Origin: a phage
DNA length: 64,000 bases
Assembly (NCBI GenBank): GCA_012813795.1
Contig: GCA_012813795.1_4087.1
Direction: 5' to 3' (one strand)
Shown here: piece after piece, positions 18,831 to 29,888 of the stretch
Layout: each line of letters starts with the position of its first letter
Numbering within the stretch: position 1 is the first letter of the stretch
Made by a program: the position numbers and the translations under genes
The notes under the pieces: generated by a model
What the model saw: only the letters and a program-made list of their open reading frames with translations
Databases searched by the model: none
Told to the model about the DNA's origin: nothing

Positions 18831-20558
18831 TTAAAAAGATTCACCTAAATTATTAGGGTCAAAAGAGCCATTTCCTTGCTGATTTTGGTATTCAGCGTCC
18901 GCACTTTCAAGATTACCTTCTGCATCCAATCCTAGGTCCATACCAGGGTCATTAGGGGAGTCGATACCAACTGACTGTAATCCAGCAACATCTTCTTGAT
19001 GTGGTGCATTAGAATCTTGTGGATTCTCTTGTAGCCATAGCTGTTCGTTTTTAACAATATCTTTCTGGGAGAAGCCCATTTTTTCAAGGATAGTTTGTTT
19101 AGCCATATATGGTAATTCATTAAGTGGCATATAAGTATTAATGAGTTTCGCATCCAATTCTGCCTTACGATACGAAGCTAAGTTAATTGGTGGATTCATA
19201 ATAACTTCAAAAGAAGAAGTACTAATGTTATATCCGCTTTTTACCATGAAACGCTTAAATTCAGCATCGAAAATTTTTGCTACTAGACGCTGATAACGCA
19301 TACATTGGTTATTAAAACGTAATTCACTTGCCATTGCTTGAGTTGCACCATCACCGAATAGTGATACACCACCGTCATCTGGGCCTTGTGGAAGGTAAGA
19401 TGCAGGTATTTGCAATCCGCGAATTAGTTTATTGTTGAAATATCTCAAGTCATCAATCTGACCCAAGTTATCGCCGCCAGGTAGTGTTTGAACATCTGAA
19501 CCACGACCTTCTGAAGTTTGTGGGAAGAAGTAGTCTTCCAGAATACTTAGTGGGTTATATGCTGCATCCATCAATGAAGTACTACCACCTTTATTAGAAG
19601 GTATACGTCTTTGGTGGATTTCATTTTTAAAGCGTTCAACATAGGCCATTGCTTGGTGAGTTTGCATATCCCCAACATCAATTTTGAATACACGGCGTTC
19701 TGGAGCACGTTGTACACGATAGATAATAATACTATCTTCAAGAAGTTCTTTTTGTTTGTAGACTTTAAAGACATCTTCTAGTATACTTGTACCGAAAGGC
19801 CAAACTCCATCTTGTCCTGTATTTAGTGACAGATGAATTACGTGTTCTGCACCGACTGGTAGGATATCCATACGACCACTGGTATTAAATGGATCGGAAC
19901 TATTACCTTGGTTGGTAAAGCCGGATGCACCACCTGCTGCAACTTGACCACCACCACCTAATGTATTAGGTACTGCACCTGGGTATGAAGCTTTATCGAA
20001 ACCAATTTGAAGGTTACTAAAAACTTTATCTTTAAGGTTAAGAGATACATCTCTTATGTAGTATATTACTGGAGTTTTTCCGGTTGCTTCGTTAACAAAA
20101 ACCTGTTCGACATTTTTTGGGTTCACCCAATACCAGTCGAATGTTTCGGGATCACGAATAAAGAACTGGTCACCGTACTTAAGTAGTCCGCGAACAATTT
20201 CATACATTCTTGTTTTGAAATCATTCTGTTCGGTCCATGCATCTAAGCGATCTTCAATAGTGGTTACTTCCGTATCACCAATATTATCTTTATATTTAAT
20301 TTTATATGGTAGACCAAAATCTTCAGTACTCTGTGTACAAAAGTCAGCAATAATGTTTAGTGCCGTTCTGATTTCTGGGTCTTGATCCATCTGGTCGTAT
20401 TGACTGTAACGGTCAGTACGGTTTGCTAATCCATTATAAACCACCGGAAGGTAGGAAGCAAAATTAGTTTTGCTCCCAGTGGATTTATTACTATTGGATT
20501 GCTGGGGTACGATCGATAATTTTGATCTTCCCATAGTCATGTGACGTTTCCAACTCAT
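18831..20558 (-). CDS. 20: portal protein (T4 gp20-like)
   Basis: IIYRVQRAPERRVFKIDVGDM aligns to T4 gp20 ([21 protein letters not shown]). Confidence 0.85.
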   Translation of the reverse strand: MSWKRHMTMGRSKLSIVPQQSNSNKSTGSKTNFASYLPVVYNGLANRTDRYSQYDQMDQDPEIRTALNIIADFCTQSTEDFGLPYKIKYKDNIGDTEVTTIEDRLDAWTEQNDFKTRMYEIVRGLLKYGDQFFIRDPETFDWYWVNPKNVEQVFVNEATGKTPVIYYIRDVSLNLKDKVFSNLQIGFDKASYPGAVPNTLGGGGQVAAGGASGFTNQGNSSDPFNTSGRMDILPVGAEHVIHLSLNTGQDGVWPFGTSILEDVFKVYKQKELLEDSIIIYRVQRAPERRVFKIDVGDMQTHQAMAYVERFKNEIHQRRIPSNKGGSTSLMDAAYNPLSILEDYFFPQTSEGRGSDVQTLPGGDNLGQIDDLRYFNNKLIRGLQIPASYLPQGPDDGGVSLFGDGATQAMASELRFNNQCMRYQRLVAKIFDAEFKRFMVKSGYNISTSSFEVIMNPPINLASYRKAELDAKLINTYMPLNELPYMAKQTILEKMGFSQKDIVKNEQLWLQENPQDSNAPHQEDVAGLQSVGIDSPNDPGMDLGLDAEGNLESADAEYQNQQGNGSFDPNNLGESF

Positions 20559-20573
20559 TATATTATTAATCCT

Positions 20574-22745
20574 TTAACTATTGCGTTCACCTTGTGTATT
20601 TTCAGAAATTGTTCTTAAGTAATTATTTGTCTGATTTGTTGCTGCGAGTGATTGTTCACTCATTTCTGCTAGACGTTTAAAAATTTCTTTGATCTCTTCT
20701 GAACTCATGTCATTATTTATAGTTCCGTTTTGAGGCGTTACCAGAGATTTTATATCACGATCTGGTTCTGGTGGGAATGGTGCTTCACCAGGTTTCCATG
20801 CGGATTTATCATAATGTTTACGAGTTAATTCCATCATAGGTGGTGTATTTGGCATTACTGTAGTCTGGGCGTTTTTAGGTGGTTCATAGCCCAAGACTCG
20901 ATATGCATTATCTACGTTAAATGGTCTAGGTGGTGTATATAATTTAGAAGATTTCCATTTTTGGAAGTCAAGTGTTTTTTCTTCTACAAATTTTGTGAAA
21001 TCGTCTACTGAATTACCAATAGAATCCCAGAAAGATGTAGCTTTCTCTTCTATTTTCTTTTTAGGTTCTTCTTGTTTTTCAGATTTATCATCTGAACCAA
21101 ACCATCCTTTTACTTTATCCCATAACTTTCCAGGTAAATCCATGAGATTCTTCATGAAGTCATCGAATGCTTTTGAAACTTGAGTATATGTGTCCCCAAA
21201 TATGTCAGAACCCAATCCCTCAAGCCATAATACAAATTCTTCACCAATACGGTCAACATAAGAAACCGCATCCTTGAATATTGGAACTAACCCAAATCCA
21301 TCTTTAGCCAATTCCCAAATAAATCCCCATGCACTATCGGTACGATCTGCAATTGCTGTCAAATAATCAACAACATTATTTTGAACATCAGCATACATTT
21401 TATTGAATGGAGCAACAAATTCAGTACTGACCCATCTGTTCAATCTATCAGTAAATTCTGCGATTTTATCTGCTGGTCGATTTTTGTCAGCATTAATTGC
21501 AGCTTCCATATCTAACATTTGCTTAGCAAATGCGGCAGCGGTGAAGTTTTGACTTCGTTGCATATCTTCCATATCTTTTTCAACGCGTTTTCTGTTTTTC
21601 TTCACCCACTGATATTGTGCTTCACGTATAGCTTTTGCATCGGTTACACCAGACTTAACCATGTTCTCACCAAGGTCAGCGAATTCGCTAATCATTGGAG
21701 ATAATAAATCATCAGGAACACCACCAATTGATATTCTGTGGCTAATCAATCTTAGGAAATCAGTACCCATATCCCCCATACCACCTGCCGCTTCGGTAAG
21801 TGCTTTAGTGGTTAATGTTGCGGTTTCTTCTGATAGTCCCACCCAGTTGTTTAGTGTAGTTTTTAGTATTCTTGCATCAAATGATTTATCAAGTGATTGT
21901 GTCTTTTTAAGTAATTCATCAATTGACATACCCATTGTCTTACTAAAAGTAGACATAGTTTTAATTAACTCTTGGGTACTTTGTGCTTGGTTTATATTCC
22001 TTACTAGTTCTGCACCACCAAATTGTTTTTGAATTTTGATGTTACGTGCTGCTAAATCTGATAAAGTTTTTTGTGACATACCATATAGGCCAAGTTTATC
22101 TTGGGCATTTTGAACTACACCTAACAATTTACCAAATTCCTTAACGCCATCTCCATACGAACCATCCAATTGTGCAATAACATCACTATGAGTTGATATT
22201 ACTTCACTGAATAGATCCATAGACATTAACGCTGAACCTGAACCTTTTAGCAAAGAGCCATAACCTTCAGCAAGAGAAACACCCGCACTGTTGACTCTGT
22301 TGTACATTTCAAGCTGGGCGTTCATTACGTTATATACTGCCATCCCTACATCAGCAACCATTTTAAATGCTGATGCTGCCATTCCTACAGGACCAGGGAT
22401 CATAGAAAGAGAGCCAGCTACGGATGATGCACTCATACCCATTGAGTTAATGACAGTACTGACATTCGCTGAAGTACTCATCATTGTTTTACCAACGTTT
22501 GTCATTTCACTGGACATTACTCTGAACATTTTACCCATAGAGGATGAATTACCACGAGAACCGCGTCCACCACCACTTGGTCCAGATGAATCGCCAGGTG
22601 ATGGGTTACCACCACCATTATTTTTCTTTTTATCATTCTTTAAACTTTCTGCTAACAATTCACGTATAGCTGAAAGACCATCTACGGTATCATTAGATTT
22701 ATTCACTATCTGTTGTAGTAAGTAATCACTGTTGTTTACAGCCAT
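20574..22745 (-). CDS. tape-measure-like / internal virion protein
   Basis: Gly/Ser-rich N-terminus followed by a Met/Ala/Ser-rich hydrophobic region; 723 aa; AGGA RBS. Confidence 0.45.
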   Translation of the reverse strand: MAVNNSDYLLQQIVNKSNDTVDGLSAIRELLAESLKNDKKKNNGGGNPSPGDSSGPSGGGRGSRGNSSSMGKMFRVMSSEMTNVGKTMMSTSANVSTVINSMGMSASSVAGSLSMIPGPVGMAASAFKMVADVGMAVYNVMNAQLEMYNRVNSAGVSLAEGYGSLLKGSGSALMSMDLFSEVISTHSDVIAQLDGSYGDGVKEFGKLLGVVQNAQDKLGLYGMSQKTLSDLAARNIKIQKQFGGAELVRNINQAQSTQELIKTMSTFSKTMGMSIDELLKKTQSLDKSFDARILKTTLNNWVGLSEETATLTTKALTEAAGGMGDMGTDFLRLISHRISIGGVPDDLLSPMISEFADLGENMVKSGVTDAKAIREAQYQWVKKNRKRVEKDMEDMQRSQNFTAAAFAKQMLDMEAAINADKNRPADKIAEFTDRLNRWVSTEFVAPFNKMYADVQNNVVDYLTAIADRTDSAWGFIWELAKDGFGLVPIFKDAVSYVDRIGEEFVLWLEGLGSDIFGDTYTQVSKAFDDFMKNLMDLPGKLWDKVKGWFGSDDKSEKQEEPKKKIEEKATSFWDSIGNSVDDFTKFVEEKTLDFQKWKSSKLYTPPRPFNVDNAYRVLGYEPPKNAQTTVMPNTPPMMELTRKHYDKSAWKPGEAPFPPEPDRDIKSLVTPQNGTINNDMSSEEIKEIFKRLAEMSEQSLAATNQTNNYLRTISENTQGERNS

Positions 22746-22852: not shown

Positions 22853-23395
22853 TTAGTATCGTGGTTCCAGTACTGCACTATAGGTTCGTTTTGGTGAACC
22901 GTCACTAACATTTTTATTACTGAATATGATAGAGTTTGTTTCTCTATTAACATACAATGTACCTTCAAGTTTTACTGTCTTTTGAACACCGCCGACAGTA
23001 TAAGTGAAGTCGTTAATGTTGTAATAAACATCATATCCAGATGCAGTACTTCCAATATAACTCCATGATTCATATGTCTGACCCATCAGTACTTCATCAC
23101 CGTTAACAGTGAATTGGATGAATGTCCATTTTAAATGTTCCTCGTTAGGATCTTCGTTATACAGTTTACCTTTGTAGCTAACAATTTGTGTTGGTAATTC
23201 ACGTTTAGTTAACTGCTCTTTGTACTCTGATTCTTTAGTTGTGGATGTTTCGCTTTTCGGAACAATCATACCGATTACTAACATAACAACCATAAAGATA
23301 CCAAAGGCTTGGAACAAACGTTTGATTGTTGTCTTTATCATAAAATATTCCTCTTGGGTGATTTTGAAGTTTTGAACATACATAAATACTTTCAT
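22853..23395 (-). CDS. putative membrane-anchored protein
   Basis: N-terminal hydrophobic segment FGIFMVVMLVIGMIV. Confidence 0.4.
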   Translation of the reverse strand: MKVFMYVQNFKITQEEYFMIKTTIKRLFQAFGIFMVVMLVIGMIVPKSETSTTKESEYKEQLTKRELPTQIVSYKGKLYNEDPNEEHLKWTFIQFTVNGDEVLMGQTYESWSYIGSTASGYDVYYNINDFTYTVGGVQKTVKLEGTLYVNRETNSIIFSNKNVSDGSPKRTYSAVLEPRY

Positions 23396-23400
23396 AATTA

Positions 23401-24288
23401 TTGCATGGAGAAAGTATTATGTCAATGAACCCGTTAGCAAAATACACAAAAATCGAAGAAATTAGTACTAAACTCGTCACTAACAACATTTTCCAGTACA
23501 AAGATGGTGTATTGGGGAGCAAAGGCATTAAATGTGGTGTCTGTGCTCGTAGTGCTCGTGACGAAATGATGCTCAATACACCTGATATGTTACTCAATGG
23601 TAGTGCAGTGTCATCTGTTATCGAAAACTGTGTACCAAACATTCTAAACGCAGAAGAGCTTTATGTCAATGACGTTGAGCAAATTCTTATTGCTATCAAG
23701 TTAGCATCCAAAGAAACCAGTTATGATATCAATGTCGTATGTCCATCCTGTTCAAAAGAAGGGCGTTTTGAACGTGACCTTTCTTATCTATTGGAAACGG
23801 CTGAATCTTTTACTGAAATTCCGAGTATTGATCTTATTAATGGTTTATCTCTCCAGTTTAGACCACTTACTTGGAAAGAATATTCAGAGTTTTCTCAACG
23901 TATGTTAGCTGAACAACAAAAAACTAAGTATCTTGAGAGTACTATTGATATTTCAGAAGATGATAAAATTAAAATGTTTTCTGAAGTATTTGAAAACATG
24001 GCACAACTAAACTTTGATATGATTGCTGGAGTTATTGATAAAGTAATTACTCCTGATGGTGATGAAGTATCAGATAAGAAATTCATAAGTGAATGGTTAG
24101 GTACTCAATCAAAAGAAGTGATCAAGCAAATCAGAGAGAAAATGGATGAAGTACTAGAAATTGGTGTATCACATACTATGGAAGTTGAATGTATTGAATG
24201 TCAGCATCAATGGGAACTTACTGGATTAAAGTATGACCCTACTCATTTTTTCGATCTCAGCTTCTCTTCTCAAACCCAGAAGAAATAA
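23401..24288 (+). CDS. zinc-finger protein (three CxxC pairs); possible C-terminal extension via -1 frameshift to 24466
   Basis: CGVC, CPSC, CIEC; T_TTT_TTC heptamer at 24246-24252; the -1 frame stays open for 63 codons beyond the 0-frame stop. Confidence 0.6.
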   Translation: MHGESIMSMNPLAKYTKIEEISTKLVTNNIFQYKDGVLGSKGIKCGVCARSARDEMMLNTPDMLLNGSAVSSVIENCVPNILNAEELYVNDVEQILIAIKLASKETSYDINVVCPSCSKEGRFERDLSYLLETAESFTEIPSIDLINGLSLQFRPLTWKEYSEFSQRMLAEQQKTKYLESTIDISEDDKIKMFSEVFENMAQLNFDMIAGVIDKVITPDGDEVSDKKFISEWLGTQSKEVIKQIREKMDEVLEIGVSHTMEVECIECQHQWELTGLKYDPTHFFDLSFSSQTQKK

Positions 24289-24478
24289 AAGAACTTCTGG
24301 ATGATATGGAGTTGAATAAATCAGATATTAAAAATGCCCTTATGGATGCTGCTGTTTATGTAGATAATGTCGATTATGCAACTCTACTTAATATGCCAGT
24401 AAATGACAGAGATATGCTTATTAAGGCATACAATAAGAAAGTAAAGAAGATGAACGAGAAGCACTAATACTCATAAGA

Positions 24479-24510
24479 AGCCAGCACATTGTTGCTGGTT
24501 TTTTTGTTTT
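24479..24510 (+). terminator. rho-independent terminator after the 23401 gene
   Basis: CCAGCA-cattgt-TGCTGG followed by a long T-run. Confidence 0.7.
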
Positions 24511-25361: not shown

Positions 25362-25853
25362 ATGAAACGAAGACTTAAAGATAGTAAGGAAGCTGCTACG
25401 TACAGAAATGAATTATTAAAAAAGCAAAAAGGTATTGATCCTATAATCAAAGAACCGATTAAGAAACCAGTACTCGACCACTATCACTTCGAAAACCAGC
25501 ATTGTAGAGAAGTTCTACAAAATGAGGTTAACGCATGGGAAGGTAAGGTGCAGAACTCTTTCAATCGATACTTGCGTCATTTAACTGATAAACCTCTTCA
25601 TGAAGTACTAAGAAATCTGGCAGATTATCTTGAAAAGAACAATAATATTCCACCAGAAGAGCAAGTGATTCATCACACGGCATTAACTGTGGATGTTAAT
25701 AAGTTTAAAAGGCTCCCAGCAACGCAGCAAAACGCGATTCTGGAAGGGTTAGGAGTTGTCCCTGGTAGCAACACTACTGCTCGTGTAAAACAGGCTAGGA
25801 AGCTTATTAAGGACGGCAAATTAAACATGTTAGATATAAAAAAAGGGAGCTAA
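25362..25853 (+). CDS. endonuclease VII (gp49)-like His-Me finger protein lacking the zinc-binding cysteines
   Basis: LDHYHFE...NEVNAWEGKVQNSFNRYL resembles T4 endo VII (LDHDHE...CNLCNAAEGQMKHKFNR). Confidence 0.45.
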   Translation: MKRRLKDSKEAATYRNELLKKQKGIDPIIKEPIKKPVLDHYHFENQHCREVLQNEVNAWEGKVQNSFNRYLRHLTDKPLHEVLRNLADYLEKNNNIPPEEQVIHHTALTVDVNKFKRLPATQQNAILEGLGVVPGSNTTARVKQARKLIKDGKLNMLDIKKGS

Positions 25854-25873: not shown

Positions 25874-28021
25874 TTAGAAAATATCATCAAGAGTAGCATA
25901 TTCAACAGTACTGAAACCGTCTTCTTTAACAACTTTAAGGATTTTTTCTGTTTTAGATAGTAATTCTTCTCTGTGAGATATTGCATATACGTTTTTACCA
26001 CGTACAGCAGCCATATCCTGGAAGATTGACCATACTCTTAGAACACCACTTGAATCAAGACCCTGATCTATCATCTCATCTATGATAAGAATATTAATAC
26101 TTTGATATAATGATTCATAAGTATCGCGGAAAGCACATGATAATGCAATATTAACACGTGTTCGTTCCCCACGACTCAATTGTTTGTAGTCAAAGTACTG
26201 TCCACTCTTCTCAATCTCAACACTAAGGTCATTCAAGAAGACCACATTGTGTTCTGAACCACACATATCAATATAGTACTGCAATCTGGAGTTCAAATAT
26301 GAGATATTTTGTTCAATGATACGTTTACGAACATAACTATCCTTATTGAGCAATAGTTTAACTAAGAAATCTTGGTGATTAGCCAATTTTTCAAGGTTAT
26401 TGAAGTCAGTATAATCAATAGGAACCAACGAATCGGTTGTTAAAGTATTAATCTGACTAATAAACGTATTAGTTGTGTTCATTTCGCGTTCAAGTTGTTG
26501 AGTAAGTGAGTTAAATGTCATTTCTAACTCTTTAACTTCTGATTTATTCAACGCATCTGGAACTTCCTTTACTTCTAATGCATCAAGAGCCTCATAAGAA
26601 GACATTAGTTCATCACGGTAGATGTTAATTTGTTCTTCCTCACTCTTTTTAATAAGTTCTTGTAGCTTATGGTCATGCATTTGGGCTTCGGTAAGGGTAT
26701 TATAGAAAGTTACAGGTTTAGGGGGCATATCAAATATCTCAATTGCATTGATTTCATCTGATAGTGTTGCAATTTCCAACTCAACCTTACTTATATTTTC
26801 TCTGATTAGACGAATAGTATCATTAATCTTATCTTTTATACCATTACCATGCTCATTATGCTCCAACTCTGATAAACAAAGTGGACATTTACTATCCTCA
26901 ACTGATTTTAATTTCTCTTCTTCTGCTGTAAGAGATTTAATATGAGCATTCAACGAAAGATTTAGTGAATTTAGTTTCTGTGTTTTGAAATTCTTTTGCA
27001 ACTGATTATCTTTTAAGATAGATTCTAGTTGTTTCCACAGTTCCATTTCTTCATGGTTTTTTAATTCAGATTCAATATCAATAGTTTTTAATTTATCGAT
27101 ACTATGCTGAATAATATTTTTATTAGTGGCTAGTTCTCTATCGTACTGATCATATTTCACTGCAAGTTCTTGAACTCTACGTTCGAGTTGTAAACGTTTA
27201 GAGATGTGTAGAAGTGCTTCTTCTTTCTCTTCAGCAGCAGCATATAAATCAGAAAATACAAAAGTACTGTATTCTTCCAATTCACTTTTTAGTTTTTGCA
27301 CTCTATTAGCCTTATCAATTTCAAACTTATTAGCCTGTTCCTGTAAGGTTTCAATGCTGCGTTGAATGCGTTCATTACTTGCTGCAACTGTTTCAATTTT
27401 AAACTTCTCTTGGTCAGCTAAACGTTTTGACTCTTTGTTCATATCCTTTAACAGTTCAGCTTTCTCTGTTAATTGGGTAATACCTAATAGCTCTTCAATC
27501 ATATCACGTTGTTTCTGTGAAGAAAGAGCAAGGAAAGGTTCAACGTTAGCATTCAGTACTACAATGTGCTCAAAAAGTAATTGAGAGATTCCTAGAATTT
27601 CATTTAGATCTTCTTGTGTATCTTTCTTTTCACCTCTTGATTCATCGAGAACTTTATTGTCCTGACCAAGAGTGATGAAATTGAAATATGTGGGACTACG
27701 CCCACGCTCAACAAGGTATTGTATACCGTCTTTCTCGAACTCAACGGTAACTTCACAATTTTTAGCATTTGTTTTATTAACTAAGTTTGGAATTTTAATA
27801 TCGTTACCAATACTTTTTCCAAATAGTCCAAAAACAAGACCTTGAATAATTGCACTTTTACCTACACCGTTACGACGACCAGAACTATCACCACCTTCAA
27901 TGACAGCATCATTGTTTTGACCGAGTACTAAAGATATGTCAGCACCATTTAAATCAATAACTTGTGGTGCATTACCAAAGGAAAAGAAATTCCTCATTGT
28001 TATACGTGTAATGTTTAACAT
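25874..28021 (-). CDS. 46: recombination nuclease ATPase subunit (SbcC/Rad50-like, T4 gp46)
   Basis: N-terminal Walker A RRNGVGKS; long coiled-coil middle; adjacent to gp47. Confidence 0.85.
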   Translation of the reverse strand: MLNITRITMRNFFSFGNAPQVIDLNGADISLVLGQNNDAVIEGGDSSGRRNGVGKSAIIQGLVFGLFGKSIGNDIKIPNLVNKTNAKNCEVTVEFEKDGIQYLVERGRSPTYFNFITLGQDNKVLDESRGEKKDTQEDLNEILGISQLLFEHIVVLNANVEPFLALSSQKQRDMIEELLGITQLTEKAELLKDMNKESKRLADQEKFKIETVAASNERIQRSIETLQEQANKFEIDKANRVQKLKSELEEYSTFVFSDLYAAAEEKEEALLHISKRLQLERRVQELAVKYDQYDRELATNKNIIQHSIDKLKTIDIESELKNHEEMELWKQLESILKDNQLQKNFKTQKLNSLNLSLNAHIKSLTAEEEKLKSVEDSKCPLCLSELEHNEHGNGIKDKINDTIRLIRENISKVELEIATLSDEINAIEIFDMPPKPVTFYNTLTEAQMHDHKLQELIKKSEEEQINIYRDELMSSYEALDALEVKEVPDALNKSEVKELEMTFNSLTQQLEREMNTTNTFISQINTLTTDSLVPIDYTDFNNLEKLANHQDFLVKLLLNKDSYVRKRIIEQNISYLNSRLQYYIDMCGSEHNVVFLNDLSVEIEKSGQYFDYKQLSRGERTRVNIALSCAFRDTYESLYQSINILIIDEMIDQGLDSSGVLRVWSIFQDMAAVRGKNVYAISHREELLSKTEKILKVVKEDGFSTVEYATLDDIF

Positions 28022-28030
28022 CCGTGTCCC

Positions 28031-29062
28031 TTATAATGATCTATAGATTTGTATTAGTAGATTCTTGTCGAACATTGGAGAATCAATTTCCATGATTTGT
28101 TGTAAAACTATCTCATCAACTGATTCAGTACTTTCAAAGTGTTCACCTTCTTCCAAAAGTTCTTTGATACTTTGTTTACTTGTAACAACGTTAAACTCAC
28201 GAATATTATAAAGTTTAGTAAAAGTATCACGAATAAAACTAATCTCATCAGTTGTGATTGGAATATCAACCTGAACTTTCGAGATAGAGTTATCTTGTAA
28301 GTAATAACTTGGATCAGTTAGTAGCTCTGACAAAGTAAATGTTCTGTATTTCGGTGCAGCATCCCATGATTTGAATGTTGGTTCTGAACCGTGTTCAAGA
28401 ATCATAACACCTCTAGCATCATCCCATGTGTCTGAGAAGTTATGAGGGAAACAGTTACCAGTATAAATTACACGAGTTCCTTTAGATGTGAGTTTGGACT
28501 GTCGTTTATGGAAATGCCCACTAAAAACATACTCACAACCACCAAAAGAACCTTCAGTCTCTTTACCATGATCTGGCATTTCTACCATTTTGTTAAGCAA
28601 ATATCCAGGCAATTCAAGATGACCAAATACATATTTGCTTTGTAATTTAGGTAGCATTTTGTATTCATCTTCAATCATAAATGGGATGAAAGTACAATCA
28701 TCAATTGTTGTAATTTCATTAATGAACTCGATGTTTTCATAAACTTGTGCCATATTAATACTTGTAATATCGCGTTTGTTTTTATGATACATGTCATGGT
28801 TCCCAACTAAGAAGTAAACTTTATCAAAGTTGTCATTTAGTAATTGGAGAATTTGTAAACCATAGTTTAATGTTTGAATATTAATGTTGCTGCGGTTATG
28901 GAAGTAATCTCCCATAAACACACATACTTTAATACCTTTCTTTTTGGCTTCATCAATCATAAATTTAATGAAGTTCAAACAATCTTCGTTGTGCTGCTTA
29001 CTGTTATTCTTTAATCCTAAATGAATATCAGTGAATGTAATTGCTTTATCAAATAGTGCCAT
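28031..29062 (-). CDS. 47: recombination nuclease subunit (SbcD/Mre11-like, T4 gp47)
   Basis: phosphoesterase motifs DIHLG, GDYFH, GNHD; start refined to the ATG at 29062. Confidence 0.85.
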   Translation of the reverse strand: MALFDKAITFTDIHLGLKNNSKQHNEDCLNFIKFMIDEAKKKGIKVCVFMGDYFHNRSNINIQTLNYGLQILQLLNDNFDKVYFLVGNHDMYHKNKRDITSINMAQVYENIEFINEITTIDDCTFIPFMIEDEYKMLPKLQSKYVFGHLELPGYLLNKMVEMPDHGKETEGSFGGCEYVFSGHFHKRQSKLTSKGTRVIYTGNCFPHNFSDTWDDARGVMILEHGSEPTFKSWDAAPKYRTFTLSELLTDPSYYLQDNSISKVQVDIPITTDEISFIRDTFTKLYNIREFNVVTSKQSIKELLEEGEHFESTESVDEIVLQQIMEIDSPMFDKNLLIQIYRSL

Positions 29063-29888
29063 CGTCATTTTTCCTTTCAATCATATTCATTTCGATTTCA
29101 ATCTGTCTTGTATGTGATGGTGTAAAACCATGCATCTCAAGAAGGTCGTCGCGAATGTTACGTACATTCTTCTCACTGTTCAAAATAGAACGGAAGCTAT
29201 TGTTAACGAATGACGTATAGTATGAGAAAGGATTTAGTTGGACAGCAGGTTTATCTTTCTTATACAAGATACTCTCTTTGAAGAGAAGTGCATTTTTAAC
29301 TAATTGTATTCTAGCATCACCCATCATTTCATCCAAATACGTATAATTTCTGTAGTTAGATTTGTGAGAGATCTCTTCGGCTAGTTTAATGAACATTTTA
29401 CCGAGTTCATTTGTGATTTTACCATGTGTTAAGTAGAAATCGCCATCTTCCAAGTCGCCTTTCCAATGTGAACGAACAACTTCATACAGAATACCTTCAT
29501 TATCAACGATATAATGTTTAAATGGTTCAAAATTCACTCGTGTATCTGGTGGAATGTGCTCATCAGTGATAACTCTAATCACCACTTCATCCAGTGGTAC
29601 ATCATTTACGAATAGACCGTGCTCATCAGCATATTCCTTTGCTTTCTTAGCACTCATATTCTCTTTTTCGCGAACACTATCAAGCATTTCATTATTCAAA
29701 CGTTTGATTCGTGCTGCTTTTGCCTTTTCAAGTAATTCTTCTGTGATTTCAGACTCATGAAACACAATATAATCATACATACCATAACTTTTATCCAAAA
29801 GCCAGCAGTATGATATCTTACTTTTATGTATTTCACGTAATAAGTCTGCGTTATTCAGATACTTCTTACGCTTCGGCTTGTTTATCAT
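29049..29888 (-). CDS. 55: late-transcription sigma factor (gp55-like) with insertion
   Basis: YLNNADLLREI and NPFSYYTSFVNNSFRSIL resemble T4 gp55; 55-47-46 order as in T4; GGAGAG RBS. Confidence 0.5.
   Translation of the reverse strand: MINKPKRKKYLNNADLLREIHKSKISYCWLLDKSYGMYDYIVFHESEITEELLEKAKAARIKRLNNEMLDSVREKENMSAKKAKEYADEHGLFVNDVPLDEVVIRVITDEHIPPDTRVNFEPFKHYIVDNEGILYEVVRSHWKGDLEDGDFYLTHGKITNELGKMFIKLAEEISHKSNYRNYTYLDEMMGDARIQLVKNALLFKESILYKKDKPAVQLNPFSYYTSFVNNSFRSILNSEKNVRNIRDDLLEMHGFTPSHTRQIEIEMNMIERKNDDGTI

Follow-up and report, generated by a model that had tools for sequence, protein, structure and literature searches.

A putative programmed −1 frameshift site, conserved among jumbo and T4-like phages, at the end of a gp26-type baseplate hub assembly chaperone gene

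The gene at 23419–24288 (+ strand) of a jumbo phage genome, which encodes a gp26-type baseplate hub assembly chaperone, very probably undergoes programmed −1 ribosomal frameshifting at a slippery heptamer, T_TTT_TTC, at 24246–24252, a conclusion that is drawn from comparative sequence analysis. The gene lies in a stretch of phage DNA of 64,000 nucleotides (nt; assembly GCA_012813795.1, contig GCA_012813795.1_4087.1), referred to here in its entirety as the window, which shares 98.5% identity along its entire length with Escherichia phage A4, a jumbo phage (Asteriusvirus), and is 74–75% identical to the listed relatives of the 121Q/PBECO4 type, with 70 records falling within the 60–80% band. 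Every genome of a related phage that was inspected (approximately 180 loci) keeps the slippery site; an in-phase heptamer was present at all of the approximately 167 distinct junctions that were collected from jumbo and T4-like phages, and it was TTTTTTC in 163 of these.

The heptamer is read in phase as CAT/TTT/TTC and lies on a conserved Phe-Phe near the C terminus of the zero-frame product, in the phase that the first-pass annotation of this DNA had assigned to it. That annotation was also right in proposing that the zero frame closes shortly past the heptamer, where 11 sense codons (DLSFSSQTQKK) are followed by TAA at 24286–24288, that the −1 frame opens just upstream of it (at 24237, directly past a TGA at 24234–24236), and that the junction would read ...DPTHFF/RSQLLF.... 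It had placed the −1 stop at 24464–24466, one base short of the actual TAA at 24465–24467, and had counted 63 codons in the extension, which in fact comprises 71 codons after the slip (24252–24464). The zero-frame tail (24253–24288, stop included), which the −1 frame overlaps, is predicted to be disordered, and the −1 extension (24252–24467, stop included) would give a trans-frame product of 349 amino acids (aa) and 39.9 kDa. The extension matches the phage protein family phrog_18291 (1.9e-28), and its AlphaFold2 model, which was built separately from that of the gene body, consists of three helices with a predicted local distance difference test (pLDDT) score of 79. Among the 39 long open reading frames (ORFs) of the window, which together contain 18,191 codons, there are 13 in-phase heptamers of the T6/A6 type, and only the one at 24246–24252 is followed by a long −1 ORF (71 codons), compared with 1–38 codons for the other 12. 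A hairpin with a 12-pair stem and a T-run, which resembles an intrinsic terminator (24475–24504, + strand), begins 8 nt after the −1 stop; because it follows this stop and not the zero-frame stop, the mRNA should include the whole extension.

The assignment of the gene to the gp26 type is based on its zero-frame product of 289 aa (32.9 kDa), which matches the T4_baseplate family PF12322 (E = 1.2e-23, 84.4 bits against a cut-off of 24.5) and the phrog_150 'baseplate hub' profile (9.6e-33, with profile positions 2–232 covered). The Pfam search gave no further significant match for this product, tail-assembly-chaperone families included; an NCBIfam search gave nothing useful and structure searches returned no chaperone match. 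The AlphaFold2 model of the zero-frame product has a pLDDT of 83 and a predicted template modelling score of 0.81, with the tail at residues 279–289 falling under a pLDDT of 50. In the homolog alignment, the cysteine pairs C108/C111 and C258/C261, which form two CxxC motifs, and F277/F278 are invariant or nearly so. A review of the T4 tail describes gp26 as a hub assembly chaperone and gp51 as a 'hub assembly catalyst' (PMC3004832). No second copy of a gp26/gp51-type gene was found when the 64-kb window was scanned. Translation most likely begins at ATG 23419, because a Shine-Dalgarno-like GGAG (23407–23410, + strand, read from the sequence) lies 8 nt upstream and because the equivalent start is annotated in phage A4; the same evidence makes the TTG at 23401, from which the gene had been drawn in the first-pass annotation, the less likely start.

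We propose that most ribosomes would terminate at TAA 24286–24288 to yield the 289-aa protein, while at U_UUU_UUC a fraction of ribosomes would slip back by one base, both tRNA-Phe molecules re-pairing on UUU_UUU, and would then read CGA UCU CAG and onward in the −1 frame to TAA 24465–24467 to yield the 349-aa protein. The long form would consist of the shared body and a 71-residue, three-helix C-terminal domain, and the slip would probably be stimulated by an RNA structure that begins 4 nt downstream of the heptamer. A single mRNA could in this way give rise to the 32.9-kDa and 39.9-kDa forms in a fixed ratio, the N-terminal body with its two CxxC motifs being common to both and the long form being made by a fixed minority of ribosomes. 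The short form would be the counterpart of T4 gp26 and the long form that of T4 gp51. By analogy with the G/GT proteins of phage lambda, the shared body may act by binding a component of the hub or tape measure, and the three-helix domain may recruit or release a second partner. Within this scheme we infer that the slip is ribosomal, how efficient it is, what the RNA structure contributes to it and what the extension does. The U_UU.U_UU.C sequence falls in the H_HH.U_UU.Y class; in Escherichia coli this class ranks with the most efficient −1 motifs, and it is used by insertion sequence (IS) elements (PMC4066793). The scheme predicts the tryptic peptides YDPTHFFR and SQLLFSNPEEIK for the trans-frame product and YDPTHFFDLSFSSQTQK for the zero-frame product.

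The two-frame arrangement recurs far beyond the closest relatives of the window. A tblastn search with the conceptual fused protein identified 94 phage records, with one place per genome, and in every listed record whose match reached the extension, at identities down to 36%, the body and the extension lay in different frames, as two pieces. The loci of 18 phages (A4, 121Q, WPEC3, JNE01, RaK2, 7t3, EJP2, Serratia phage BF, Kaldavass, CBB, XbC2, GAP32, a Vibrio phage, Phosso, Atu_ph07, PA5oct, RsoM2USA and XacN1) were also read individually, and in all 18, as in the 19 inspected loci overall, the C-terminal Phe-Phe coincides with a T-run heptamer that is in phase, and the −1 ORF has 69–82 codons. 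Scanning IMG/VR produced 575 relatives, and among the best 80 loci, most of them at 25–33% identity, TTTTTTC stood in phase in 78, the remaining two having A_AAT_TTT one codon upstream. In these 80 environmental loci the −1 frame stays open for 58–78 codons past the stop, versus 1–21 for the +1 frame. The resulting jumbo set comprises 84 distinct junction sequences from Rak2-like phages, PA5oct, Atu_ph07, XacN1 and environmental phages, down to approximately 25% identity, and an in-phase slippery heptamer is present in 84 of 84: T_TTT_TTC in 80, T_TTT_TTT in two and A_AAT_TTT in two. Approximately 1,160 relatives were detected in IMG/VR, and the signal was present in all of the approximately 160 loci sampled. 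The A_AAT_TTT variant (GTA AAT TTT TCA TAA) occurs in loci L055 and L088, at about positions 1990–2030, and its slip product would still read ...NFF-I-R-S-L....

Conservation at these junctions extends to the nucleotide level. Nine different amino acids (N, S, H, D, A, R, Y, V and T) are encoded just ahead of the heptamer, but the codon there has T as its third base in 82 of the 82 T-run cases, against a background of 49% T. The last codon of the heptamer is TTC in 80 of the same 82 cases, and elsewhere TTC makes up 30% of Phe codons. A G directly follows the heptamer in 78 of the 84 jumbo junctions, and the first −1 residue is therefore Arg. From this first residue onward the extension aligns across all lineages as R-x-R-L-L-x-L...E-I...W-Y-M-R...E-R..., and the zero-frame tail ranges in length from 1 to 11 codons among the jumbo relatives. 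In nearly every enterobacterial relative, the two Leu codons that follow the slip are CTT CTN, within a GCTTCT sequence that lies at 24260–24265 in the window. This constraint spans loci L002–L012 and L021–L027, where TTA would be expected in such a genome, and no conserved pairing partner could be assigned to it.

The first-pass annotation had named homologs with a single-frame extension as a finding that would refute frameshifting and indicate an indel in this genome. The comparison gave no such refutation: the two-frame layout was found at 84 jumbo and 83 T4-like junctions, and no in-frame fused homolog appeared among the relatives recovered with the fused query or in an exhaustive scan of protein-cluster representatives. 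The 60 homologs returned by the fused query were all 276–297 aa long and covered 78–83% of it. With the extension alone as query, a word-indexed search gave one match of 53 aa, and the exhaustive phmmer scan of 1.84 billion representatives gave 10 matches, all of 51–73 aa. The only in-frame relative is a distant paralog, T4 gp51, in which the equivalent domain is continuous with the body; this supports the view that the fused protein is functional.

Downstream of the heptamer, the window contains a predicted RNA structure of 59 nt (24257–24315, + strand) with an outer helix of 8 bp (24257–24264/24308–24315), a middle helix of 3 bp (24270–24272/24302–24304) and an inner helix of 7 bp. The inner helix is the CCAGAAG/CTTCTGG stem that had been noticed at the outset, and it is present at 24276–24282/24294–24300 inside the minimum-free-energy fold. 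Its 24-nt distance from the heptamer had seemed longer than is typical, a concern that is removed by its nesting within the outer helix, which begins 4 nt after the heptamer. A free energy of −18.3 kcal/mol (z = −3.1) is predicted for the 68 nt that follow the heptamer, and 2 of 200 shuffled sequences folded equally well. In phage EJP2 the outer helix of the window is also present, with one compensatory pair. Throughout the jumbo set, the best helix anchored 4–9 nt past the heptamer exceeded the 95th percentile of same-gene controls at 61% of the 84 junctions (Mann-Whitney p = 2e-28), and many environmental members have helices of 7–16 bp at a 6-nt spacer. These predicted folds make an RNA stimulator of the slip probable in the window genome.

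The relationship with T4 was examined through loci of the cyanophage type. In a cyanophage (S-WAM1), an Agrobacterium phage (OLIVR5) and a Cronobacter phage (LPCS28), T_TTT_TTC coincides with the FF motif and is followed by a −1 ORF, and these ORFs match phrog_634, 'baseplate hub assembly catalyst' (1.9e-30, 2e-7 and 3.5e-10, respectively); in OLIVR5 part of the −1 ORF is annotated under that name. A second IMG/VR scan, for T4-like sequences, gave 586 relatives, of which 80 loci were kept and combined with the 3 isolates. The heptamer was in phase in 83 of these 83 loci, and the −1 ORF extends for approximately 55–67 codons, except in a few that are cut by a contig end. The small ORFs after gp26 in these loci (L100–L182), called 'gp51 / baseplate hub assembly catalyst' or 'hypothetical', are in the −1 frame of gp26. 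Because T_TTT_TTC precedes the small gp51 ORFs in all 83 loci, they have the appearance of wrongly annotated portions of a recoded gene. With a hidden Markov model of the T4-like trans-frame products, T4 gp26 aligned up to ...FF and T4 gp51 aligned straight across the junction. It is thus well supported that, in cyanophage-type loci, the zero-frame product is the equivalent of gp26 and the trans-frame product that of gp51.

T4 itself lacks the site. Its gene 26 ends ...KEFFELL (GAG TTC TTT GAG), without a slip site or T-run, and is immediately followed by gene 25. Like T4 gp26 and gp51, the zero-frame product of the window gene (ORF1) matches PF12322 or phrog_150 and has two CxxC motifs together with ...FF at its C-terminal end; the end of gp26 corresponds to that of the zero-frame product, and gp51 continues colinearly with the −1 extension. 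T4 gp51 matches PF12322 at 3.9e-52 and covers phrog_150 positions 13–280, versus 2–232 for window ORF1. In contrast to the window arrangement, T4 gp26 and gp51 are encoded by two separate, divergently transcribed paralogous genes, and the T4 gene 26 record has an in-frame internal product, 26′, which does not arise by frameshifting. The jumbo and T4-like trans-frame profiles are colinear in global mode (hhalign probability 99.7%, E = 6e-26), and an hhalign comparison of the jumbo fused alignment with the single T4 gp51 sequence gave a weak result. The window extension shares with the cyanophage-type gp51 ORFs (phrog_634) its position, its −1 frame, a similar length and an R-x-x-L start, but it belongs to phrog_18291 and matches gp51 only at the profile-profile level. 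For the window extension, these comparisons are suggestive only of homology to the C-terminal domain of gp51. With moderate confidence, we favor a history in which one gene with a conserved −1 frameshift was the ancestral route to gp26 and gp51 in T4-related myoviruses, both jumbo phages (like Rak2, PA5oct and Atu_ph07) and cyanomyoviruses, T4 genes 26 and 51 being a duplicated, hard-wired derivative of it. Such an arrangement would correspond, within the T4 superfamily, to the pairing of the G and GT chaperones in lambda.

The closest functional parallel is the gpG/gpGT pair of phage lambda, whose frameshift was reportedly described by Levin, Hendrix and Casjens in 1993 and by Xu, Hendrix and Duda in 2004. 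In both cases a chaperone gene for tail morphogenesis carries, close to its 3′ end, a heptamer at which a −1 slip gives short and C-terminally extended products with a common N-terminal body in a fixed ratio, which for the window gene is predicted from sequence. In both, the recoding is kept across phages without remaining sequence similarity, and the window gene also adjoins a gene for a large virion protein, which is likened to a tape measure in the RaK2 record. Unlike the lambda gene, the window gene belongs to an unrelated family, PF12322, uses U_UUU_UUC instead of G_GGA_AAG, and is not situated between tube and tape-measure genes but is divergent from the gene for a 723-aa virion protein and from a 180-aa ORF. 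Because neither gene position nor protein family corresponds to that of lambda, we consider that the window site works like G/GT but outside that family. For lambda, the ratio of the two forms is crucial and neither form is present in the virion (PMC5009743). The site also resembles the signals of IS3/IS1 transposase genes and dnaX in its X_XXY_YYZ heptamer, its early zero-frame stop and, in many members, its predicted downstream structure. It differs from them in that an upstream Shine-Dalgarno-like stimulator was not seen by eye in the window, where no systematic search was made, and in that the partner of the downstream helix differs between phage lineages.

Several observations weigh against the interpretation as a stimulated ribosomal frameshift that yields a gp51 counterpart. 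RNAalifold found no consensus structure in codon-based alignments of either jumbo subgroup, and the enterobacterial relatives of the window are near the controls in anchored-helix score. The outer helix of the window is not conserved across the enterobacterial group, lies exactly at the 95th percentile of the controls and not above it, and leaves a 4-nt spacer, shorter than the usual 5–8 nt; nor was the anchored helix enriched in the T4-like set (p = 0.17). Because of the missing RNAalifold consensus, and because the anchored helix has different 3′ partners in different clades, we claim no conserved pseudoknot or hairpin. With respect to gp51, local hhalign of the extension families alone gave P = 0.003 and a probability of 10%, in the same register; the window extension had no match to phrog_634, and Foldseek related it to a gp51 only at E = 2.1. 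In addition, an ATG overlaps the zero-frame stop (TAATG/ATGA) in 9 of the 84 jumbo lineages, e.g. 121Q, JNE01, Phosso and Atu_ph07, and in such lineages termination-reinitiation could produce a free small protein instead of the fusion or alongside it. In these four phages (loci L002, L004, L014 and L015, respectively) the zero-frame stop lies one codon after the heptamer. Finally, the T6 run could support low-level transcriptional slippage.

Slippage by RNA polymerase, which would add one U in the T6 run and thereby place the extension in frame in some of the mRNAs, is the alternative that survives best, although we consider it improbable. The site is a homopolymer, slippage is known to occur at runs of T or A (discussed in PMC5009743), and longer runs occur in two distant relatives (T9 in RsoM2USA and T7 in XacN1). 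Against this, known productive transcriptional slippage involves runs of about 9 or more, and T6 is short for efficient slippage. The A_AAT_TTT sequence of two lineages provides a run of T5 only, yet it is a valid in-phase X_XXY_YYZ heptamer, and the C at heptamer position 7 is conserved. The enrichment in the jumbo set of a helix 4–9 nt downstream is also as expected for frameshifting by the ribosome.

Marginally less probable still is an independent small gene, translated without fusion either from its own start (ATG 24306, which would give 53 aa) or by reinitiation coupled to the gp26 stop. Most records annotate separate small coding sequences (CDSs), including A4_1 of phage A4, which corresponds to the 53-aa ORF at 24306–24467 (+ strand), and the cyanophage annotations treat the small ORF as 'gp51'; the ATG that overlaps the zero-frame stop in 9 lineages would likewise fit such a gene. 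The public records that were inspected have two separate CDSs, or the first only (RaK2), and none of them has a joined CDS. The position of a possible start is not conserved, however. No ATG occurs before extension codon 10 in 58 of the 84 junctions, no ATG, GTG or TTG occurs before codon 5 in 51, and the −1 ORF of PA5oct has no start codon anywhere. The 18 residues upstream of ATG 24306 (RSQLLFSNPEEIKELLDD) show conservation at the protein level that begins with the codon directly past the heptamer, and because these conserved residues precede its ATG, the 53-aa ORF is best explained as a truncation by the gene caller. An independent gene would also leave unexplained both the in-phase heptamer at approximately 167 junctions and the constraint on silent sites, and T4 gp51 has the equivalent domain in one frame with a gp26-like body. 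Separate initiation, or reinitiation, is a plausible reading only for those few lineages whose stop is overlapped by an ATG.

The first-pass annotation had left open a choice between programmed −1 frameshifting, which the conserved heptamer favors, and an insertion or deletion in the T-run; the latter, like a decaying pseudogene or a chance open frame, has a negligible probability even though homopolymers are error-prone and the genome is AT-rich (36% GC), since an error could not recur identically in approximately 170 independent assemblies of isolates and metagenomes, the protein collections that were searched contain no in-frame version, the −1 peptide belongs to a conserved family with a confident helical model, and no other in-phase T6/A6 heptamer of the window precedes a comparably long −1 ORF.

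We know of no recoding in the baseplate-hub assembly of T4-type or jumbo phages. A search of full-text literature, which left most subscription journals outside its coverage, found nothing that connects frameshifting or slippage with the baseplate hub or with gp26 or gp51, and the words 'baseplate' and 'cyanophage' are absent from a 2016 review of recoding (PMC5009743). If programmed −1 frameshifting does operate here, the few morphogenesis genes of phages that rely on a conserved −1 frameshift would gain a member from a second, unrelated protein family, and the making of two chaperone forms at a fixed ratio would be a principle that also applies to the baseplate-hub assembly of T4-type and jumbo phages. 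Frameshifting would also explain why T4 has two paralogous and poorly understood hub assembly factors, gp26 and gp51, and make their relationship testable. The small 'gp51' or 'hypothetical' ORFs that follow gp26 in many phage and metagenome records would then be mis-annotated, and gene callers and proteomics searches should include the junction peptide.

The surroundings of the gene include a divergent neighbor at 20574–22745 (− strand), the 723-aa virion structural protein gene (phrog_14121, 3.4e-246). Between it and the gp26-like gene lies the 180-aa ORF (22853–23395, − strand), for which no PHROG match was found. The sequence ATAAATA at 23382–23388, 30 nt upstream of the start codon, resembles what we take to be the core of the T4 late promoter, TATAAATA. 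Judged by eye, the products of 18831–20558, 25874–28021 and 28031–29080 (all − strand) presumably correspond to a T4 gp20-type portal protein and a gp46/gp47-type (Rad50/Mre11-like) nuclease pair. The gp26 homolog of phage CBB (locus L010, 592–1449) is called a 'structural protein' in RefSeq; the available part of the CBB virion mass-spectrometry table lists CBB_251 and does not list CBB_249 or CBB_250. Another in-phase heptamer, A_AAA_AAA at 25838–25844 (+ strand), lies two codons ahead of the stop codon in an ORF of 163 aa (25362–25853), and the −1 frame remains open for 38 codons past it. Because it overlaps the 3′ end of a 715-aa gene on the opposite strand, this heptamer probably occurs there by chance.

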